The notes under the pieces: generated by a model | Seen by the model: the letters and a program-made list of their open reading frames with translations, nothing else | What the model was told of the DNA's origin: nothing | The model's database searches: none | Translations under genes and position numbers: made by a program | Assembly: GCA_963702425.1 (NCBI GenBank) | Contig: CAVPCQ010000030.1 | Coordinates: 1-64,000, forward strand | Direction: 5' to 3' | Origin: an uncultured Acidobacteriota bacterium | Lineage (GTDB): Bacteria; Acidobacteriota; Polarisedimenticolia; J045 | Length of the DNA: 64,000 nucleotides | In this document: positions 58,248 through 64,000 of the stretch, one piece after another | Numbering within the stretch: position 1 is the first letter of the stretch | Layout of the letters: each line of letters begins with the position of its first letter

Positions 58248-59661
58248 ATGGTGATGGGGAGCCTGAACCAGGAGACCGAGGTCGTCGTCGTCGGCGGCGG
58301 CCCCGGCGGCTACGTGGCCGCGATCCGCGCCGCGGACCTGGGCCGCGAGGTGCTGCTGGTCGAGGAACGCGAGGCTCTCGGGGGCGTCTGCCTGCTCGAG
58401 GGCTGCATCCCGTCGAAGACGCTGATCCACGCGGTCGAGGTGATCCACGGCGCGGCGACGGCGAAGAAGATGGGGATCGGCTTCGGCGCGCCGGCGATCG
58501 ACCTGGCCAGCCTGCGCGGCTGGAAGCAGGGGGTCGTCGACGGGCTCTCCAACGGCGTCCGCAGCCTCCTGAAGCAGCGCGGGATCGAGGTCGTGCGCGG
58601 CCGCGCGCGCTTCGCCGGCCCGCGCTCGCTGACGCTCGAGCATTCCGACGTCTCGGGGATCGACTTCAAGCACTGCATCCTCGCCACCGGCTCGCGGCCG
58701 GTCATGCCGTTCGACGAGGGGCTCGGGTTGTGGACCTCACGCGAGGCGCTCGAGCTGCCGGAAATCCCGGCGCGGCTGCTGGTCGTCGGCGGCGGGTACA
58801 TCGGGCTCGAACTGGGGTTCGTCTACGCGGGGCTGGGCTCGAAGGTCTCGGTCGTCGAGCTGCTGCCGCAGCTCCTGACCGGCGCCGACCCGGACCTGGT
58901 CGCGATCGTGCACCGCAGCGCGAAGAAGCGCTTCGCCGACGTCTGGATCGAGTCCAGGGTCACGAAGATCGAGACGCAAGGGGGACGGCTACCAGGTCTC
59001 GATCGAGGCCAGGGGGGAGACCAAGCAGCACGAGTTCGACCGCGTGTTGGTCGCCGTCGGACGCAAGCCGAACACCGAGAACCTCGGGCTCGAGAAGACC
59101 GCGATCGTGCTCGACTCGAAGGGACTGATCGAGGTCACGCCGGAGTGCCGGACGCGCGAGTCGCAGATCTTCGCGATCGGCGACATCGTCCCCGGGCCCG
59201 CGCTCGCGCACAAGGCGAGCCGCGAGGGGAAGGTCGCGGCGGAGGTCATCTCCGGGAAGAAGTCGGCGATGGACAACGTCTCGATCCCGGCGGTCGTCTT
59301 CACCGAGCCGGAGCTGGCCTGGGCCGGACTGACGGAAGAGGAAGCGAAGCAGAAAGGGATCCCGATCAAGGTCGGGAAGTTCCCGCTGGCCGCGCTCGGC
59401 CGCGCCAAGACCGTCGGCAGCATCGACGGGATGGCGAAGGTGATCGCCGACCCCGACAGCGGCCTGCTGCTGGGCGTCGGCATCGTCGGGCCGCACGCCT
59501 CGGACCTGATCGCCGAGGCGGCGCTGGCGCTGGAGATGGGCGCCACGCTCGAGGACCTGATGGCGACGATCCACCCTCACCCGACCTTCTCCGAGCTGCT
59601 GATGGAGGCCGCCGAGGTTGCCGCCGGCGAGCCGGTCCACATCTTCGTCAAGAAACCGTAG
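58248..59661 (+). CDS. lpdA: Dihydrolipoamide dehydrogenase; frameshift at ~58980
   Basis: GGGPGGYVAAI, GGVCLLEGCIPSK, GGGYIGLE, AIGD and IHPHPTFSE motifs. Confidence 0.94.
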
Positions 59662-59727
59662 GGGCCGCCCTCCGTGCCGGCCCGAAGAGAGATCGCGATG
59701 CGGGCCGCCACGGAGGGCGGCCCCTAC
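59658..59727. repeat. REP doublet (REPIN-like inverted pair)
   Basis: GTAGGGGCCGCCCTCCGTGCCGGCCCG-16 nt-CGGGCCGCCACGGAGGGCGGCCCCTAC; the left GTAG contains the lpdA stop. Confidence 0.88.
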
Positions 59728-59742
59728 GATTCCCGCTCGTCC

Positions 59743-60402
59743 GTGCCGCTGACGATCGGTCGCTACGACGCCGACGACGCCCTGCTCGCCGCCGTGCGCG
59801 CCGACGGCATCGCGCGCCTGACGGCGACGCGCCCCGCTGCCCCGCTCGTCGTCCTCGGCGCCGGAAGCAAACCGGAGCGCGAGCTTCATCTCGAAGCGCT
59901 CTCGTCAGACGGCATCCGGGTCGCGCGTCGCGCCGGCGGCGGCTGCTCGGTCGTGCTCGACCCCGGGAACGTGGTCGTCTCGATCGCGCTGCCGGTCGAG
60001 GGTCTCCCCGGGATCCGGACCGCCTTCGACTGGATCTCGGGATTCGTGATCGCCGGGCTGGCGCGGATCGGGCTGCCCGGCGTGACCTGCGAGGGGATCT
60101 CCGACCTCGCGCTCGGCGGGCGCAAGCTCGCCGGCGCCTGCATTCACAAGGACCGCAGCCTCGTCTACTACTCGCTCACGATCCTCGCCGACCCAGACCT
60201 CGGCCTGCTGCCGCGCTACCTCCAGCACCCGCCCCGCGAGCCGGAGTACCGCCGGTCGCGGAGCCACCTGGAGTTCGTCCGGGCGCTGGCCGACCTCCAC
60301 CCGGACTGGACCGCGCCCCGACTGGCTGCGGCGCTCGATGCCGCGCTCGCCCCCGCGACGCTGCTGGGCACGCCCTTCCCGGAGCGACGGCCGGCACGCT
60401 GA
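59743..60402 (+). CDS. Lipoate-protein ligase A family protein
   Basis: VVLG, RRAGGGCSVVLDPGN, GISDL...RKLAG and REPEYR..RSH.EFV motifs; adjacent to the pdh cluster. Confidence 0.85.
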   Translation: MPLTIGRYDADDALLAAVRADGIARLTATRPAAPLVVLGAGSKPERELHLEALSSDGIRVARRAGGGCSVVLDPGNVVVSIALPVEGLPGIRTAFDWISGFVIAGLARIGLPGVTCEGISDLALGGRKLAGACIHKDRSLVYYSLTILADPDLGLLPRYLQHPPREPEYRRSRSHLEFVRALADLHPDWTAPRLAAALDAALAPATLLGTPFPERRPAR

Positions 60403-60427
60403 CTGACATCCGCGGTCGCCAGGAGAC

Positions 60428-60685
60428 TGAAGTGGGCCAGCGATTCTGCGGACTCCGCGAGTCGCAGCAACGCCGTCTCCCGGCCGGACGTTCCCCCTCT
60501 TCGCTGCGAAAAACACGGGATCGGGCGACGGATCTGCCTGGCTCTCCCGGCAATCGTCGTGCGGAAGAGAGCGCTCAAGGGCCTGGCGCCTAGCGGAGCC
60601 ACGGCCACCCCGGGTCCGTACGACTCTCAGAGAGCTCCAGTCGACCGGCGGGCGCCCGACTTCCCGCGCACCGTCGCGCCTCTCC
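60428..60685. repeat. ~258-bp non-coding repeat, copy 1
   Basis: Begins TGAAGTGGGCCAGCGATT. About 80% identical by manual alignment (one 1-bp gap) to 61466..61722; flanks diverge immediately before the TG. Confidence 0.9.
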
Positions 60686-60718
60686 GCCCCCCTGGCCGAA
60701 CGCCCCGATCACGCTCGT

Positions 60719-61136
60719 CTAGGGCTGCCAGGGATTCACGACCTTGACGCCGCAGCCTTCGAAGTCGTCCACGTTGCGGGTGGCGACGGTCGCGCCCGTG
60801 GCCCACGCGATCGCCGCGATCCTGCATCCAACTGCGAGATGGGCCGTCCCGCTCGGCGCCGGTCGGTCGCGATCTGGCGTAGGGCGGGGCTGCATCGGAG
60901 CCGAACCCAAGGATCCGGCCTTCGAAGTCCTCCGCGAACATGGAGGTCACAGCGGCCTCGAGCGCACGCCGACGGCGACCGGCCGGAAGGAGCATGAGGC
61001 CGTGGAGGATCTCGGCCTGGGTGATGGCCGTCGTGTACAGGCCGGCCGTGGGCTGCTCGCCGATCCAGGCCACGAGCGGCGCGGCGGGTTTCGGTTTCAT
61101 CAGCTCCGAGAGCACGTTCGTATCGAGGATGATCAT
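60719..61136 (-). CDS. vapC: FitB/VapC PIN-domain toxin (two frameshifts at ~60875 and ~60822)
   Basis: MIILDTNVLSELMK...TAITQAEI / RRRAGRPISQLDA / IAAIA...VATRNVDDF...VVNPW, spread over three frames. Confidence 0.85.
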
Positions 61137-61381
61137 CGGCCCGGCCTCGGCGGGTCACGGATCGGCTCGCGAGCGGGGATCTCGAACTCGACGCCGCCCA
61201 GTCGGCGAAAGCGGGCCCGAATGGAGTCGGCCAGGCTGCCCCGTGGAACGGCGTCCTCGCCGAGCGCAGACCGCAGGAGCGAGCGGGCCTCTTCCTCCAT
61301 CGAGCGACCGTGCTGGGCGGCGCGCACGCGCAGTCGCATCTTCGTCTTCTCGTCGAGCTTTCGAATGGTCAGGCTCGCCAT
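61133..61381 (-). CDS. fitA: FitA-like RHH antitoxin
   Basis: MASLTIRKLDEKTKMRLRVRAAQHGRSMEEEAR; ATGA overlap with the toxin; AAGGAG RBS. Confidence 0.9.
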   Translation of the reverse strand: MASLTIRKLDEKTKMRLRVRAAQHGRSMEEEARSLLRSALGEDAVPRGSLADSIRARFRRLGGVEFEIPAREPIRDPPRPGR

Positions 61382-61393
61382 CCTGAGTCTCCT

Positions 61394-61417
61394 TTGAAAG
61401 CACTGACATCAGTGTAT
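61394..61417 (-). promoter_or_regulatory. Candidate fitAB promoter/operator
   Basis: Palindrome CACTGA-CA-TCAGTG at 61401-61414. Minus strand reads TACACT (-10-like) then TGATGTCA-G-TGCTTTCA, similar to the FitA half-site TGCTATCA. Confidence 0.55.
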
Positions 61418-61465
61418 GCACTGCAGGCCAAGCCGTCCAGCGGCGCCCGCGAACGCTGCAGTGGA

Positions 61466-61722
61466 TGAAGTGGGCCAGCGATTTTTCTGACTCCGTGAAT
61501 CGCGGTAACGCCGACTCCCGGCCGGCTGCTCCCCTCTTCGCCGCCGAAAACACGGGGTCGGGCGACGCGTCTGCCTGGCTCTCTCGACGATCGCAGAGAC
61601 GATGAGAGCGCTGCAGTCCCTGGCACCTGGCAGAGCCTCGGCCACCCTCGGTCCGTGCGACTCTCAGAGAGCTGCAGTCGACCGGCCGGCGCCCGCCTTC
61701 GCGCGTCCCCTCGCGCCTCTCC
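61466..61722. repeat. ~257-bp non-coding repeat, copy 2
   Basis: Direct repeat of 60428..60685 with the same TGAAGTGGGCCAGCGATT start and TCGCGCCTCTCC end. Confidence 0.9.
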
Positions 61723-61836
61723 CATCCTCCCGGCCCTCCCGGGACACACCTTCCCCGTTAACCGCCGCTCCCGAAGTTCGAAAAGTGGAGGATTGGCTCG
61801 GCATTCGGAACGCATCTCAAACGACGACTGCCAGCC

Positions 61837-62056
61837 CTACAACTTTTCCCACCGCGCTCTTGTGATCCCTGCCTGCCTGAGGACGATCTTCAACAGCGTG
61901 ATCCCGATGTCCCCGCCGTGGGGATTCGGGATCGTCAGAACCAGGTCGTCTCTTCTGCATGAACTCGTGCCGACCACCCGAGTACGGCCCCGTGAATCCC
62001 GCCCGCCGCAAGGCGGCGACCAGCTCGCGGCGTTTCACCGGCCGCCAGGAAGGCAT
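61837..62056 (-). CDS. hicA: HicA-family toxin (frameshift at ~61950)
   Basis: MPSWRPVKRRELVAALRRAGFTGPYSGGRHEFMQK / DLVLTIPNPHGGDIGITLLKIVLRQAGI...WEKL*. The ATG overlaps the hicB TGA. Confidence 0.85.
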
Positions 62057-62295
62057 CAGCCTGCCTTCCGGATCCTGATTCTCACGCCCCCGAGCGCTGG
62101 AATGTCGAGCCCTCGAGCGACGCGGACGAGGATCCACTCCTCGACGACCTCCTGCAGCTGTGAACGACAGGACTCCAGGGTCGCGCCCGTCGCGATCGCC
62201 CCGCGAAGGCCGCGTACCTCCGCGCAGTACGAGCCATCTTCGAGCTGCGTGTATCGAGCCCGCTCCAGCGCCGCATCGGTATAAGCTCGGATCAT
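62056..62295 (-). CDS. hicB: HicB-family antitoxin (short, no DNA-binding domain)
   Basis: MIRAYTDAALERARY..LEDGSY.AEV.GL.G..ATGATLE.CR..L.EVVEEWI. Confidence 0.88.
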   Translation of the reverse strand: MIRAYTDAALERARYTQLEDGSYCAEVRGLRGAIATGATLESCRSQLQEVVEEWILVRVARGLDIPALGGVRIRIRKAG

Positions 62296-62531
62296 CTTGG
62301 CCTCTCGCGTCCGGGCTGCGCCCGGCACTCCCCGGGGGATCAGGCTCCCCTGCAGTATCCGCGTCGCGCCGCACGGGCGCGTACCGGTCTGGTGATCATA
62401 CCGCATCCGTTCTTTCGTTAGACACGCCAGGGACGGCCGGTACCGATCCGGCCGGCCTCGTTGCACGATGCTCCGGCGCCGCCCGATCCGCTTCCCGACT
62501 GGCGGATCCCATGCCGGGGGAGGATCTCGAT

Positions 62532-63816
62532 ATGGAGCCCGCGCTTCCCCGAACCTGGCCCCGCCGCGCCCGCTCCGCGATCCTCCACGCCCTCTCCCTG
62601 GCCCGGATCGCGTTGCTTGCGGCCACCGACCGCGTCGCCGTCTCCGTCCGCCTGGAGCATGAGGTGGCCCTGCTCCGCGAGGAACTGCGCATCAAGGACG
62701 CTCGCCTGGAGCGCGTCCCGCCGCGTCACCGCCCGCACTACTCCGCGGTCGAACGCCTCGCGATCCTCGAGCTCCGCGCCGCTCAGGGCTGGTCGGCAGC
62801 GCAAACCGCCGAGCGATTCTTCGTCACGGAGGCGACCGTCGCCTCCTGGATGACGCGGCTCGACGAGGACGGGTCCTTCCGCGCCCGTCCAGACGCCCGA
62901 ACCCGTGAACAGGTTCCCGGACCTCGTTGCGCACATCGTGCGGCGGCTGAAGGTGCTCTGCCCCGCGATGGGGACGGCGCGGATCGCCGCCGTGCTCTCC
63001 CGCGCCGGGCTTCACCTCGGACGGACCACCGTCCGCCGGATGCTGAAGCGGCGGCCCCGGCGCGTGGCGCCTGCCGCGACGGTCCGCAGCGGGCGTCGCA
63101 TCCGGTCGTCGCGACCGAACCACATCTGGCTGGTCGACCTGACCACCGTCCCGACGCTCGCCGGGTTCTGGATCCCGTGGCTGCCCTGGTCGCTTCCCCG
63201 GCGCTGGCCGTTCTGCTGCTGGGTCGCCGTCGGTGTCGACCACTTCTCCCGGCGGATCATGGGCGTCCGGGTCTTCCGGGGCCGGCCCGCCGCCGTGGCG
63301 ATGAGCGCCTTCCTGGCCGGCTCGATCCGGGCCGCGGGGCAGGCGCCACGACACCTGATCACGGACCGCGGGAAGCAGTTCACGGCGAGGTCGTTCCGGC
63401 GCGGCTGCCGTCGTGCCGGAATCCGGCAGCGCTTCGGCGCGATCGGAAAGCACGGCAGCATCGCGCTCGTCGAGCGCTGCATCCGGACGCTCAAGGACGA
63501 AGGCGTGCGGCGCTGGCTGGCGCCGGTCCGGCGGCGGAGCGTCGGGCGGGAGATGTCGCTCTTCGCCGACTGGTACAACGGCCAGCGCCCGCACGCCGGG
63601 CTGGCGGGTGCGACCCCCGACGAGATCTACTTCGGGCGCCGGCCGGCGCATCATCGGCCGCGCTTCGAACCCCGCGCGCGATGGCCGCGCTCGTCGCGCT
63701 GCGCCAGGCCGCAGGCGCCGGTCCGCGGGCGGCCGGGCGTGCGGCTCGCGCTCGAGGTGCGGTACCTGCAAGGGCGAGCGCACCTTCCCGTCGTCGCGCT
63801 GACCCGCGCGGCCTGA
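62532..63816 (+). mobile_element. HTH + rve (DDE) integrase/transposase, IS481/IS3-like; frameshift at ~62880
   Basis: N-terminal coiled coil and HTH (GWSAAQTAERFFVTEATVASW); RPNHIWLVDLT (D), ITDRGKQF (D), ALVERCIRTLK (E) and WYNGQRPHAGLAGATPDE motifs. Confidence 0.9.
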
Positions 63817-64000
63817 GGGAGGTATCTGCGGTTCTGTTCCGGCCGGGGGCGCCGTGTGCGCTCGTGCAGCCCAGCATGCCGCTCGACGAGCGATCTCCGT
63901 CGCTGTGCTGACGCTCGGCCCGATTTCGCCGCGCTGAGTGAGCGCCGCGACGGCCTTGCGATGCCGAGAACCGCATCCGGCCGCGACCCAAAGTCGGTGG

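Follow-up and report, generated by a model that had tools for sequence, protein, structure and literature searches.

The apparent cassette array near the right-hand end of the window (the whole stretch of DNA analysed here, 64,000 nt long) is best explained, at a probability that we put at about 75%, as one toxin-antitoxin (TA)-carrying insertion sequence (IS) nested in another, the repeat being the long left arm of the element and not the site of an integron-like system. The unit consists of a left terminal inverted repeat (IRL), a left arm of ~350 nt that closes with a 3' fragment of tRNA-Asn, a TA pair, a 434-aa transposase and a right terminal inverted repeat (IRR), and measures 2.5-2.9 kb. 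It is a variant of passenger-carrying IS not known before, from soil and sediment Acidobacteriota, and its stacking is best read as the outcome of self-insertion. The features of the locus are as follows.

59674..60402, plus strand: LplA/LipB-type lipoate-protein ligase gene, chromosomal flank (Pfam LplA-B_cat 1.4e-24)
60428..60712, plus strand: left arm of element A, IRL at ~60428-60447, truncated after ~285 of ~350 nt
60719..61136, minus strand: toxin gene with a PIN domain (fitB/vapC), carried by element A and lacking 1 nt at two places compared with intact copies
61133..61381, minus strand: fitA antitoxin gene (ribbon-helix-helix), cargo of element A (Pfam FitA-like_RHH 5.4e-19)
61457..61465, plus strand: 9-nt remnant TGCAGTGGA of the decayed inner IRL of element A, followed by the start of element B
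61466..61830, plus strand: left arm of element B, IRL at ~61466-61485, conserved inner block and degenerate tRNA-Asn 3' fragment at ~61790-61830
61837..62053, minus strand: hicA toxin gene, cargo of element B, one surplus base at ~61952
62056..62310, minus strand: hicB antitoxin gene (UPF0150-like), cargo of element B (Pfam UPF0150 1.1e-23)
62511..63816, plus strand: DDE transposase gene (HTH + rve + rve_3), IS481/IS3-like, split by one frameshift at ~62874
63817..64000, plus strand: right arm of element B, with the IRR starting at 63993 and continuing to contig position 64009

Read on the minus strand, the order is hicB, hicA, repeat B, fitA, the PIN gene, repeat A, 25 bp and the stop of the lipoate ligase; ORF coordinates and Pfam matches agree on this with the first-pass annotation, which had also described the rve gene as divergent. 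The same annotation gave fitA-fitB a promoter of their own, for which a consensus scan of 60300-62700 offers no sigma-70-like site, returning only one weak terminator-like site. The lplA region is syntenic with that of the relative G010, at 92% identity up to the repeat, and fitA shares 96-99% identity with its counterparts in C25 and G010. The stretch from lplA to the pseudo-tRNA-Asn/gltA is an IS-rich hot spot, present in a far shorter version in one relative. In the window assembly hicA, the PIN gene and the rve gene are all frameshifted. The PIN gene has indels at ~60823 and ~60873, the missing base being present at both positions in short-read contigs from four studies, and an intact copy encodes 139 aa (C25:79737-80156, Pfam PIN 1.5e-12). 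Split over two frames in the window, with a C-terminal piece matching Pfam HicA_toxin at E = 0.0017, hicA is intact as 72-aa ORFs in C25c and G009:C5, and short-read contigs from four studies have one base fewer at the extra base. The transposase frameshift, located by three-frame translation, is absent from other copies and from short-read contigs. Errors in the long-read consensus may account for the interruptions of all three genes.

We then considered the repeats themselves. The direct repeats at 60428-60685 and 61466-61722 share 83% identity and a sharp TGAAGTGG at the outer end, and the repeat search reported them as 192 nt in register at 83% (60494-60685/61531-61722) and 69 nt at 84% (60428-60496/61466-61534), the latter separated from the 192-nt family by a 1-nt indel; the initial description of ~80% identical, TG/CA-ended repeats with a 1-bp indel and a sharp end was accurate. 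MAFFT alignment showed that both copies become alike exactly at TGAAGTGGGCCAGCGAT and that the likeness fades ~257-285 nt into copy A. The conserved left arm extends over ~350-385 nt in most copies, and not over the ~257 bp first given as the repeat length; copy A is truncated. In arm A, nhmmer covers profile positions 1-280, and the outer 17 nt fit the inverted repeat pattern with 0 mismatches. Nine copies were found by nhmmer in the same genome at E <= 8e-9, which exceeds chance, and one more match had E = 0.92.

The first ~17-20 nt of each repeat form the IRL, an inverted repeat of the far end (IRR) of the rve gene module, in line with the suggestion that the repeat is a DDE-transposase end. 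Similarity is lost exactly at TG(A/T)AG... at six left ends and at ...CT(A/T)CA at nine right ends; when the nine right ends are compared, conservation stops at ...CC(T/A)(T/A)CA. Left and right ends agree at about 14-15 of 17-18 positions, and for element C25a the repeat search independently reported a 22-nt, 77% inverted repeat. The IRR lies at contig 63993-64009, where the inverted repeat pattern fits with 0 mismatches up to position 64009. Its first 8 nt are inside the window and the other 9 nt past the window end, so that it was invisible to the reader of the first-pass annotation, where the opposite end was reported as missing. That annotation had also proposed looking beyond 64000 for an inverted copy together with a target-site duplication: the former is this IRR, and no target-site duplication was found, either in the flanks of the six left and nine right ends, compared by eye, or around any complete element. 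The terminal inverted repeats measure 17-22 nt with TG...CA ends, and no direct repeat flanks any complete copy. Beyond them, no subterminal motifs common to left and right arms were evident. In the flanks of element ends, G(G) tends to precede TG on both sides. With 3-4 or 2 mismatches allowed, the loose inverted repeat pattern gives ~0.11 matches per kb per strand in this GC-rich genome; matches were kept only when confirmed by extended homology, and those at L120:3360, L092:1982 and L138:2539 were dropped as being at chance level.

The gene between these ends is uninterrupted in the intact transposases P0001 and P0002 (434 and 433 aa). Pfam places rve (4.6e-14), HTH_23 (2.7e-7) and rve_3 (3.5e-6) on the transposase, and the NCBIfam IS481 model (NF033577) is the top-scoring IS model at 121.2 bits against a cut-off of 224, with IS3 (NF033516) at 94.3 bits against 160. 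On these best models the protein would be assigned to the IS481/IS3-like (rve, DDE) superfamily, below both curated cut-offs. IS481-family elements have terminal inverted repeats and a 4-15-bp target duplication, and IS3-family elements have two overlapping ORFs joined by a programmed -1 frameshift. The IS3-type two-ORF layout was not found here, as the intact copies are a single ORF with an rve core and an N-terminal HTH, as in the IS481 family, and score below the IS3 cut-off. All four uninterrupted full-length transposase ORFs in the genus sit in TA-bearing elements, and the cargo-free copies are all deleted or broken; these small numbers are compatible with a stabilising effect of TA modules on the elements that carry them.

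Across the genus, in which all genomes compared are MAGs, we counted 27 left-arm copies over five genomes. Twelve of them are followed in the same orientation by the transposase, always as arm, 0.7-1.5 kb of cargo, transposase and right arm, which bears out the proposed link between the repeat and the rve integrase family. The first-pass annotation had named a dispersed IS end with random neighbours as the alternative: the repeat is an IS end, but its neighbours are not random. In the 12 units, the TA pairs between the outer IRL and the transposase are non-transposition genes inside an IS-sized element, and Pfam distinguishes six different TA pairs in this slot, so that the cargo does vary between copies and relatives, as had been supposed. 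Two observations favour movement of the unit as a whole: copies of the hicAB unit in three different contexts (C30, C25 and G009:C5) share 92-94% identity over 2.1-2.5 kb, and a unit carrying DUF433/DUF5615 occurs in four genomes. The DUF433/DUF5615 pairs are oriented opposite to the other cargo. Cargo-free IS copies (C23, C19 and C12) have the same IRL 108-145 nt upstream of the transposase alignment start. No convincing ORF was found in the 250-300 nt between arm and cargo in C25b and G011:C20.

Relatives outside the genus are built similarly. A Terriglobia MAG encodes a relative with 59% amino acid identity, in an element with an outer IRL/IRR pair (45 nt at 80%) and an intact inner IRL 112 nt before the transposase gene; between outer and inner IRL it carries an HTH/YoeB-like pair and a DUF4261-like gene. 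Three metagenome contigs contain tandem IRL-leader units or a miniature element, and their inserts share one spot, immediately behind a GAGG that is itself 6-8 nt ahead of the start codon.

These data bear directly on the possibility raised by the first-pass annotation, namely a DDE-driven, integron-like platform. On that view the repeat would act by itself as an att site, at which TA cassettes would be added singly by the rve enzyme beside its own gene. Integrons use the IntI tyrosine recombinase, attI and attC cassettes, their sites being 60-140-nt hairpins, and TA cassettes are frequent in chromosomal integrons. The divergence of recombinase and cargo, the repeat after each cargo, the single slot with six alternative TA cargos, the stacked modules in three lineages and the left ends stacked in distant relatives too would all suit such a platform. 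However, each repeat opens with a full IRL pairing with the IRR beyond the transposase, for which a whole-element end suffices, and no free unit of cassette plus site was seen without an IS end. Arm-cargo and cargo-transposase junctions shift by tens of nucleotides among cargo types, with no fixed cassette core site, and cargo orientation is mixed, the DUF433/DUF5615 pairs being reversed. Moreover, no conserved hairpin or attC-like palindrome was detected (the repeats are 285-385 nt long, and RNAalifold on 12 copies gave no covariation support on either strand), and the adjoining gene is rve/HTH by Pfam, with no other recombinase ORF, of the tyrosine type or otherwise, between lplA and the contig region examined. 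We thus consider the integron-like reading very improbable. What stands of the proposed DDE gene-capture platform is that modules stack before one transposase; there is no stand-alone att site, as each module forms the left-hand portion of a whole transposon and brings an IRL of its own. The likeness to integrons is a superficial geometry only, a recombinase divergent from small modules each with a repeat, together with frequent TA cargo. In contrast to integrons, no tyrosine recombinase lies at this locus, the ~350-nt repeats are transposon ends, and the cargo consists of complete operons in either orientation with junctions that are not fixed.

The nested-IS reading is supported by the junctions. 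Element A (fitAB) runs from 60428 as far as the first 9 nt of its decayed inner IRL, where element B (hicAB, contig 61466-64009) takes over, and in C25b the same fitA-upstream sequence runs into TGCGGTGGATCAGCGCT, followed by the simple-IS leader and the transposase. The fitA-to-arm-B junction is identical in G010, where the order A-fitAB-B recurs, and is bridged by one short-read contig; the array is therefore no assembly artefact. In G009:C5, an element of the same type with a complete IRL follows ~36 codons of the transposase of a fitAB-type element, and G008:C85 shows arm, cargo, transposase (aa 1-112), arm (positions 216-355), cargo and transposase. Past the IRR of element B come ~395 nt of other sequence and then, at contig 64407-64706, a right-end fragment of 300 nt. 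What element A should continue with (the remainder of the inner IRL, the leader and the transposase) is absent there, so that nested insertion needs a later deletion or recombination.

Based on these observations, a complete element opens with the IRL (TGAAGTGGGCCAGCGAT...) and a non-coding arm of ~330 nt, which leads into the degenerate tRNA-Asn 3' fragment and a two-gene TA module, then in some types a decayed inner IRL and a ~115-nt simple-IS leader, and finally the 434-aa transposase, ~195 nt and the IRR. By analogy with IS3/IS481-type elements, the transposase would act on the outer IRL and the IRR, moving all that lies between. Element B would have entered element A at nt 9 of the inner IRL, and element A would then have lost its transposase part, probably through recombination between two ~90%-identical transposase genes or by deletion. 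The outcome would be two modules of left arm and TA pair ahead of one transposase, resembling a cassette array. The whole array, with its outermost IRL and IRR intact, could be movable as one unit. The junctions suggest that cargo was exchanged by recombination, both illegitimate and homologous, between conserved arm and transposase gene, and not by site-specific capture.

Homologous recombination or unequal crossing-over, between left arms or transposase genes of separate elements in the hot spot, might also have produced the tandem itself. Arm B is indeed a mosaic: compared with arm c, which has the same cargo, its 60-nt bins are 90, 91, 72, 71, 72 and 94% identical, and in bin 181-240 it is closer to the neighbouring arm A, at 88%. 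In addition, arm B of G010 (98-100% identical up to ~position 240) is joined straight to the pseudo-tRNA/gltA flank, which in G000 follows a different, 73%-identical arm on C25, as fits a crossover between direct arms. Nevertheless, the window junction lies at nt 9 of the inner IRL and continues with a complete IRL, outside any arm or transposase gene, and G009:C5 has a complete IRL after transposase codon ~36. Complete element ends at junctions are a mark of transposition, not of homologous exchange, and we regard this origin of the tandem as rather unlikely.

The inner end of the arm deserves separate attention. Solo arm copies run into an intact tRNA-Asn gene, the only one in the genome, and this arm-tRNA-Asn layout is kept at one locus in four of the five genomes of the genus, because of which part of the arm could be chromosomal in origin. 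The inner 60 nt are, moreover, the best-conserved part of the arm. One might accordingly take the repeat for mainly a host feature, a tRNA-Asn 3' trailer or a structured or regulatory RNA that was copied around with IS inserting beside it. Against this, the outer end is a bona fide IRL, ~26 nt being identical to the IRL of the cargo-free IS, and the arm lies on the inner side of the IRL, so that it cannot be the flank of an inserted IS. The arm has no Rfam match: cmscan against Rfam 15 at E <= 1 gave four matches, all on a hairpin at 59647-59737 and none on the repeats. RNAalifold covariation terms of +1.96 and +0.12 kcal/mol on the two strands give no structural support either. A DNA search found the arm in none of 18 genomes from the 11 other genera of the family, which already suggests that an arm-like trailer behind tRNA-Asn is absent in sister genera. 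A host feature as the main identity of the repeat is hence scarcely credible. Islands that target tRNA genes have a tyrosine or serine integrase, and each of their borders carries the tRNA 3' end as a direct repeat; such an integrative island was considered for the tRNA-Asn 3' fragment inside the arm and rejected, as the search gave no integrase of either type and the element is bordered by inverted repeats of the IS kind.

Excised circles or precise empty sites, which the first-pass annotation had proposed as a check, did not appear: no such joint occurs in contigs from four public DNA runs. Joints skipping 1.0-1.3 kb between arms A and B were discarded as evidence of excision, the simplest explanation being other arm copies that align partly to each. 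When the C23 simple IS and its flanks served as query, no clean empty site was found in four relatives, the flanks lying on different contigs or beside other sequence.

Among known elements, the closest in layout are IS481-family elements with two passenger genes such as ISArsp12/ISPfr21 (PMC6305408). In the passages of that article describing them, they share with our elements one rve-type DDE transposase, short TG-starting inverted repeats, two passengers inside these repeats and a size of ~2.6 kb. Compared with those descriptions, our passengers are TA pairs, with six alternatives in one genus, and they are preceded by a conserved arm of ~350 nt with a tRNA-Asn fragment at its end. In several types a second IRL persists internally in decayed form. 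No target duplication was found, and the transposase scores 121 against 224 bits for IS481. Tn3-family transposons, in the portion of Lima-Mendez et al. 2020 (PMC7157771) that treats TA pairs embedded in transposition modules, likewise acquired diverse type II pairs (PIN, HEPN and others) repeatedly, directly beside the transposition genes and not among ordinary cargo. Recombination between related elements is proposed there for TA exchange, as it is here. Tn3 elements differ in having a Tn3 DDE transposase, a resolvase and a res site, whereas ours are much smaller, with a single rve transposase and no resolution site. As to stacking, the sections of Olasz et al. 2022 (PMC9333248) on IR-targeting and IS dimers in IS30 offer the likeness of a copy-out-paste-in-type IS inserting at or near resident ends, with multi-end structures that then rearrange. 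IR-targeting as presented in them gives only IRL-IRR junctions, whereas here left end follows left end in direct order, and the junctions fall 9 nt into an IRL, within the leader shortly ahead of the start codon, or near the beginning of the transposase gene.

A bolder and, in our opinion, unlikely though not far-fetched extension is that the family is a self-stacking TA carrier. Its transposase would prefer the inverted repeat, leader or 5' region of resident copies for insertion, recombination of the two transposase genes would leave one behind a growing row of IRL, arm and TA modules, and the row would stay mobile through its outermost IRL and IRR. If true, cassettes could accumulate through a DDE transposase, in a functional parallel to integrons, and the conserved arm of tRNA-Asn origin would, like the transposase gene, also provide homology for cargo swapping. 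Overall, an integron-like puzzle becomes a defined mobile element whose ends are mapped, and TA pairs riding directly beside a transposase are now seen in a further case that does not belong to the Tn3 family. How small IS gain and exchange cargo can be approached from two leads, the recurrent stacking of left ends and the arm derived from a tRNA-Asn flank. For annotation, the arm accounts for contig breaks and for the variable hot spot of 20 kb and more between lplA and gltA in this Acidobacteriota genus.

A repeat search of the window returned direct repeats at 60494-60685/61531-61722 (192 nt, 83% identity) and at 60428-60496/61466-61534 (69 nt, 84% identity), the second pair being offset by 1 base from the first. 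The pairwise alignment shows 28 unrelated nt in front of TGAAGTGGGCCAGCGAT, the point at which both copies abruptly become similar. The two direct repeats, with the 1-nt shift and the sharp end described in the first-pass annotation, are thus real, and the gene order that it gave was found again:

minus strand, hicB (UPF0150, 1e-23)
minus strand, hicA remnant
minus strand, fitA (FitA-like RHH protein, 5e-19)
minus strand, PIN gene
LplA-type ligase gene, ending 25 bp before repeat A (60428 onwards)
rve gene, beyond hicAB and divergent from the toxin-antitoxin (TA) genes

Rfam gave no match on the repeats; its only four matches, all sub-threshold, fall on a hairpin at 59647-59737. This hairpin (59654-59731; 31 nt, 94% complementary, 16-nt loop) is situated where the dihydrolipoyl dehydrogenase gene ends and lplA begins, overlaps the annotated lplA start, and has a weaker copy in the related genome G010. 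The models placed on it are spurious sub-threshold microRNA models, and they are the sole Rfam contact in the region.

We then examined the repeat in the host genome (5.1 Mb, 42 contigs). A profile search detected nine copies at E <= 8e-9, two on the window's own contig (C30, of which the window is positions 1-64000), four on contig C25 and one each on C29, C37 and C17. Moreover, BLAST of C30:60000-69823 against the genome showed that repeat B, hicAB and rve (61466-64002) recur on C25 as one 2.5-kb block at 93% identity, and that fitAB recurs there at 97% beside another rve copy; the repeat is therefore multi-copy, and the adjoining rve module is repeated as well. When nine rve-distal ends were aligned, conservation stopped at ...GGTGGCCGCC(T/A)(T/A)CA, and this end, reverse-complemented, agrees with the repeat's opening 17-18 nt at approximately 14-15 positions. 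A pattern scan placed perfect matches to the inverted repeat at contig positions 60428 and 61466 (plus) and 64009 and 64704 (minus), and for C25a, one of the copies on C25, the repeat finder itself reported the terminal pair (22 nt, 77%). Since the rve-distal ends, the pattern scan and the C25a pair all point to the start of the repeat, the latter carries the left terminal inverted repeat (IRL) of an element. The opposite end, which the first-pass annotation did not see within the window, came to light in the search beyond 64000: the right terminal inverted repeat (IRR) lies at 63993-64009 and ends nine bases past the window.

The transposase ORF is uninterrupted in two copies, of 434 and 433 aa, and contains HTH_23, rve and rve_3 domains. 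Among NCBIfam models it scores best with IS481, at 121 bits (cut-off 224), and with IS3, at 94 bits (cut-off 160). Both scores fall short of the cut-offs, and for this reason we regard the enzyme as IS481/IS3-like and assign it to neither family. Every transposase copy, including that of the window (62615-62631), carries at codons ~33-38 a 17-mer, TGCTTGCGGCCACCGA(T/C), resembling the terminal inverted repeat at 14 of 17 positions; a nested element on contig C5 of genome G009 is inserted exactly at this 17-mer. A second, unrelated rve-type IS (C17:29617-30756; L011:4618-5757) abuts a truncated left arm in the host genome. Its N-terminus contains ...ENLALRHQL..., it scores 68 bits with IS481 and 63 bits with IS3, and related sequence of ~1.4 kb occurs at more than 15 places on C17, C18, C19, C23 and C32.

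Single frameshifts interrupt the transposase copies of the window and of C25c. In the window they join two 1-nt deletions in the PIN gene and one extra base in hicA (positions 60823, 60873, 61952 and ~62874). At every site, the difference that restores the frame is present in short-read metagenome contigs of four studies, and hicA is intact in C25c and on G009:C5, so that the window frameshifts may be consensus errors of the assembly or private to the strain; no conclusion here rests on them. Other genes of the window may also carry single-base consensus errors of the kind suggested by these contigs.

The conserved left part of the element, hereafter the arm, was found by DNA search in all four other genomes of the genus, and in none of 18 genomes from the 11 other genera of the family; the transposase is present in four of the five genus genomes, which are Acidobacteriota MAGs. 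A multiple alignment of 22 copies showed the arm to be conserved over ~350 nt, longer than the 257 nt first assigned to the repeat, and strongest in the last 60 nt, ending GGATTGGCTCC. When profiles of the arm, the transposase and the right arm were mapped on the fetched loci, 27 distinct arm matches came out. In twelve the transposase comes 0.7-1.5 kb after the arm and in the same orientation, four adjoin an intact tRNA-Asn gene, two adjoin a pseudo-tRNA upstream of gltA, two lead into a further arm (in the window array and in its counterpart in G010), and seven are fragments, pieces at contig ends or matches with other content. The slot between arm and transposase holds six different pairs:

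HicA/HicB
FitA/PIN
DUF433 and DUF5615 (Mut7-C/PIN-like)
MNT (NTP_transf_2) and HepT
DUF6036 nucleotidyltransferase and an unassigned 234-aa protein
DUF4258 (below cut-off) and an MqsA/HTH-like protein

Solo arm copies pass directly into an intact tRNA-Asn(GTT) gene in reverse complement, which ARAGORN identified on C29 of the host and on G010:C5, G008:C4 and G009:C6; the host copy is the sole tRNA-Asn among 62 tRNA genes found. Cargo-bearing arms continue into a degenerate 30-45-nt copy of the tRNA-Asn T-arm and 3' end, and then into the cargo. Because the arm is located inward of the IRL, it cannot simply be the flank of an inserted IS. Either it derives from a tRNA trailer, or the tRNA-Asn gene of the genus was brought in on such an element. 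The C29 gene (74379-74454) with its solo arm has orthologous loci in G008, G009 and G010, being kept in four of the five genus genomes, and this locus adjoins a Pro/Gly/Lys-rich gene (MSPPNKTGGRPP...).

The same IRL recurs in cargo-free copies on C23, C19 and C12, all deleted or broken, where it precedes the start of the transposase alignment by 108-145 nt. In three cargo types (fitAB in C25b, DUF4258 in G010:C2 and DUF6036 in C37), a decayed second IRL directly follows the TA pair and precedes the simple-IS leader and the transposase. The hicAB and DUF433 types retain no leader, and their junction falls within the first ~10 transposase codons. In addition, arm-side junctions differ between cargo types by tens of nucleotides in the 22-copy alignment; with junctions variable on both sides, nothing resembles a fixed recombination core. 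On G009:C16 (L042:1453-7134), ~5.2 kb is bounded by a left arm and by a right arm that has an IRR; it contains no copy of the family transposase, and its ORFs look like another transposase. This unit may be a non-autonomous derivative with larger cargo.

The window array itself is best read as a nested insertion. Upstream of fitA, element A and C25b are collinear as far as the inner IRL of the latter (TGCGGTGGATCAGCGCT). In the window and in G010, only the first 9 nt of this inner IRL are left (TGCAGTGGA), with the complete IRL of element B following at once, and on this basis we take element B to have inserted into a fitAB element, 9 nt inside its inner IRL. What should remain of element A was not found after the IRR of B on the contig, where 64012-64406 is other sequence and 64407-64706 a right-end fragment of 300 nt that has an IRR of its own. 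To account for the missing remainder, it has to be assumed that a deletion followed, or that the two transposase genes underwent a crossover. Independent nestings occur on G009:C5, where the leader and ~36 transposase codons of a fitAB-type element lead into the same B-type element, and on G008:C85, which reads arm, DUF433 pair, transposase (aa 1-112), then arm (positions 216-355), MNT/HepT and transposase. Moreover, a short-read contig joins fitA to arm B (X1, record 4), and such bridging contigs support the array independently of the host assembly.

In G010 (5 contigs), synteny extends at 92% up to arm A, fitAB and arm B are 98.8% identical, and from approximately arm position 346 the sequence passes directly into pseudo-tRNA-Asn and gltA. 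In the host, gltA and the pseudo-tRNA lie on C25 behind a different, 73%-identical arm, with three more complete elements upstream. The simplest account would be a crossover between direct arms that deleted more than 20 kb in the G010 lineage. Compared with arms c and A, arm B is a mosaic; homologous exchange between arms therefore occurs, and cargo could plausibly be swapped by this route. Just downstream of this IS hot spot, outside the window, a pair of 1.1-kb segments (C30:66040-67156 and 68280-69401; 92% identical), with clusters of 66-68% identical paralogues on C40 and C33, looks like a multi-copy gene family.

Relatives were also found outside the genus. An element in a Terriglobia MAG (transposase 59% identical in amino acids) has a 45-nt outer IRL/IRR match at 80% and, 112 nt ahead of the gene, an intact inner IRL. 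The 2 kb of cargo between its two IRLs include genes for an HTH_3 protein and for a partner weakly resembling YoeB (E = 0.0013), in divergent orientation to the transposase. A second relative, 53% identical, is a simple IS that has an IRL/IRR miniature of 142 bp in its vicinity. A metagenome scan gave 63 loci, of which the 15 with usable flanks were examined together with three genome contig loci (L092, L098 and L095). As the loose inverted-repeat pattern alone is unspecific (0.11 matches per kb per strand), cases were counted only when confirmed by extended homology. A canonical IRL stands 91-112 nt before the start in 8 of these 18 loci (metagenome contigs L120, L121, L125, L128, L133 and L148, together with L092 and L098, the two relatives just described). 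L120, L121 and L125 carry an extra IRL-leader unit or an 80-nt miniature at the same spot, directly after the GAGG situated 6-8 nt ahead of the start codon. Left-end stacking is thus a recurrent trait of the family.

In a limited literature search, no published account was found of an IS481 element or tIS with TA passengers in this arrangement. The IS481-family elements ISArsp12 and ISPfr21 are described with two passenger genes (PMC6305408), similar in this respect to the two-gene TA cargo seen here. Tn3-family transposons are reported to bear TA pairs beside their transposition genes, acquired repeatedly and exchanged by recombination (PMC7157771), and IS30 is described as inserting next to its own ends, with IRL-IRR junctions only (PMC9333248). 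Overall, judged from sequence comparison, what had been proposed as an integron-like cassette system is better described as a real, well-delimited, passenger-carrying IS. From the same comparisons we infer stacking by self-insertion and mobility of the composite. The features of moderate interest are the exchangeable TA cargo, the putatively tRNA-Asn-derived left arm, and the apparent tendency to stack left ends by self-insertion.
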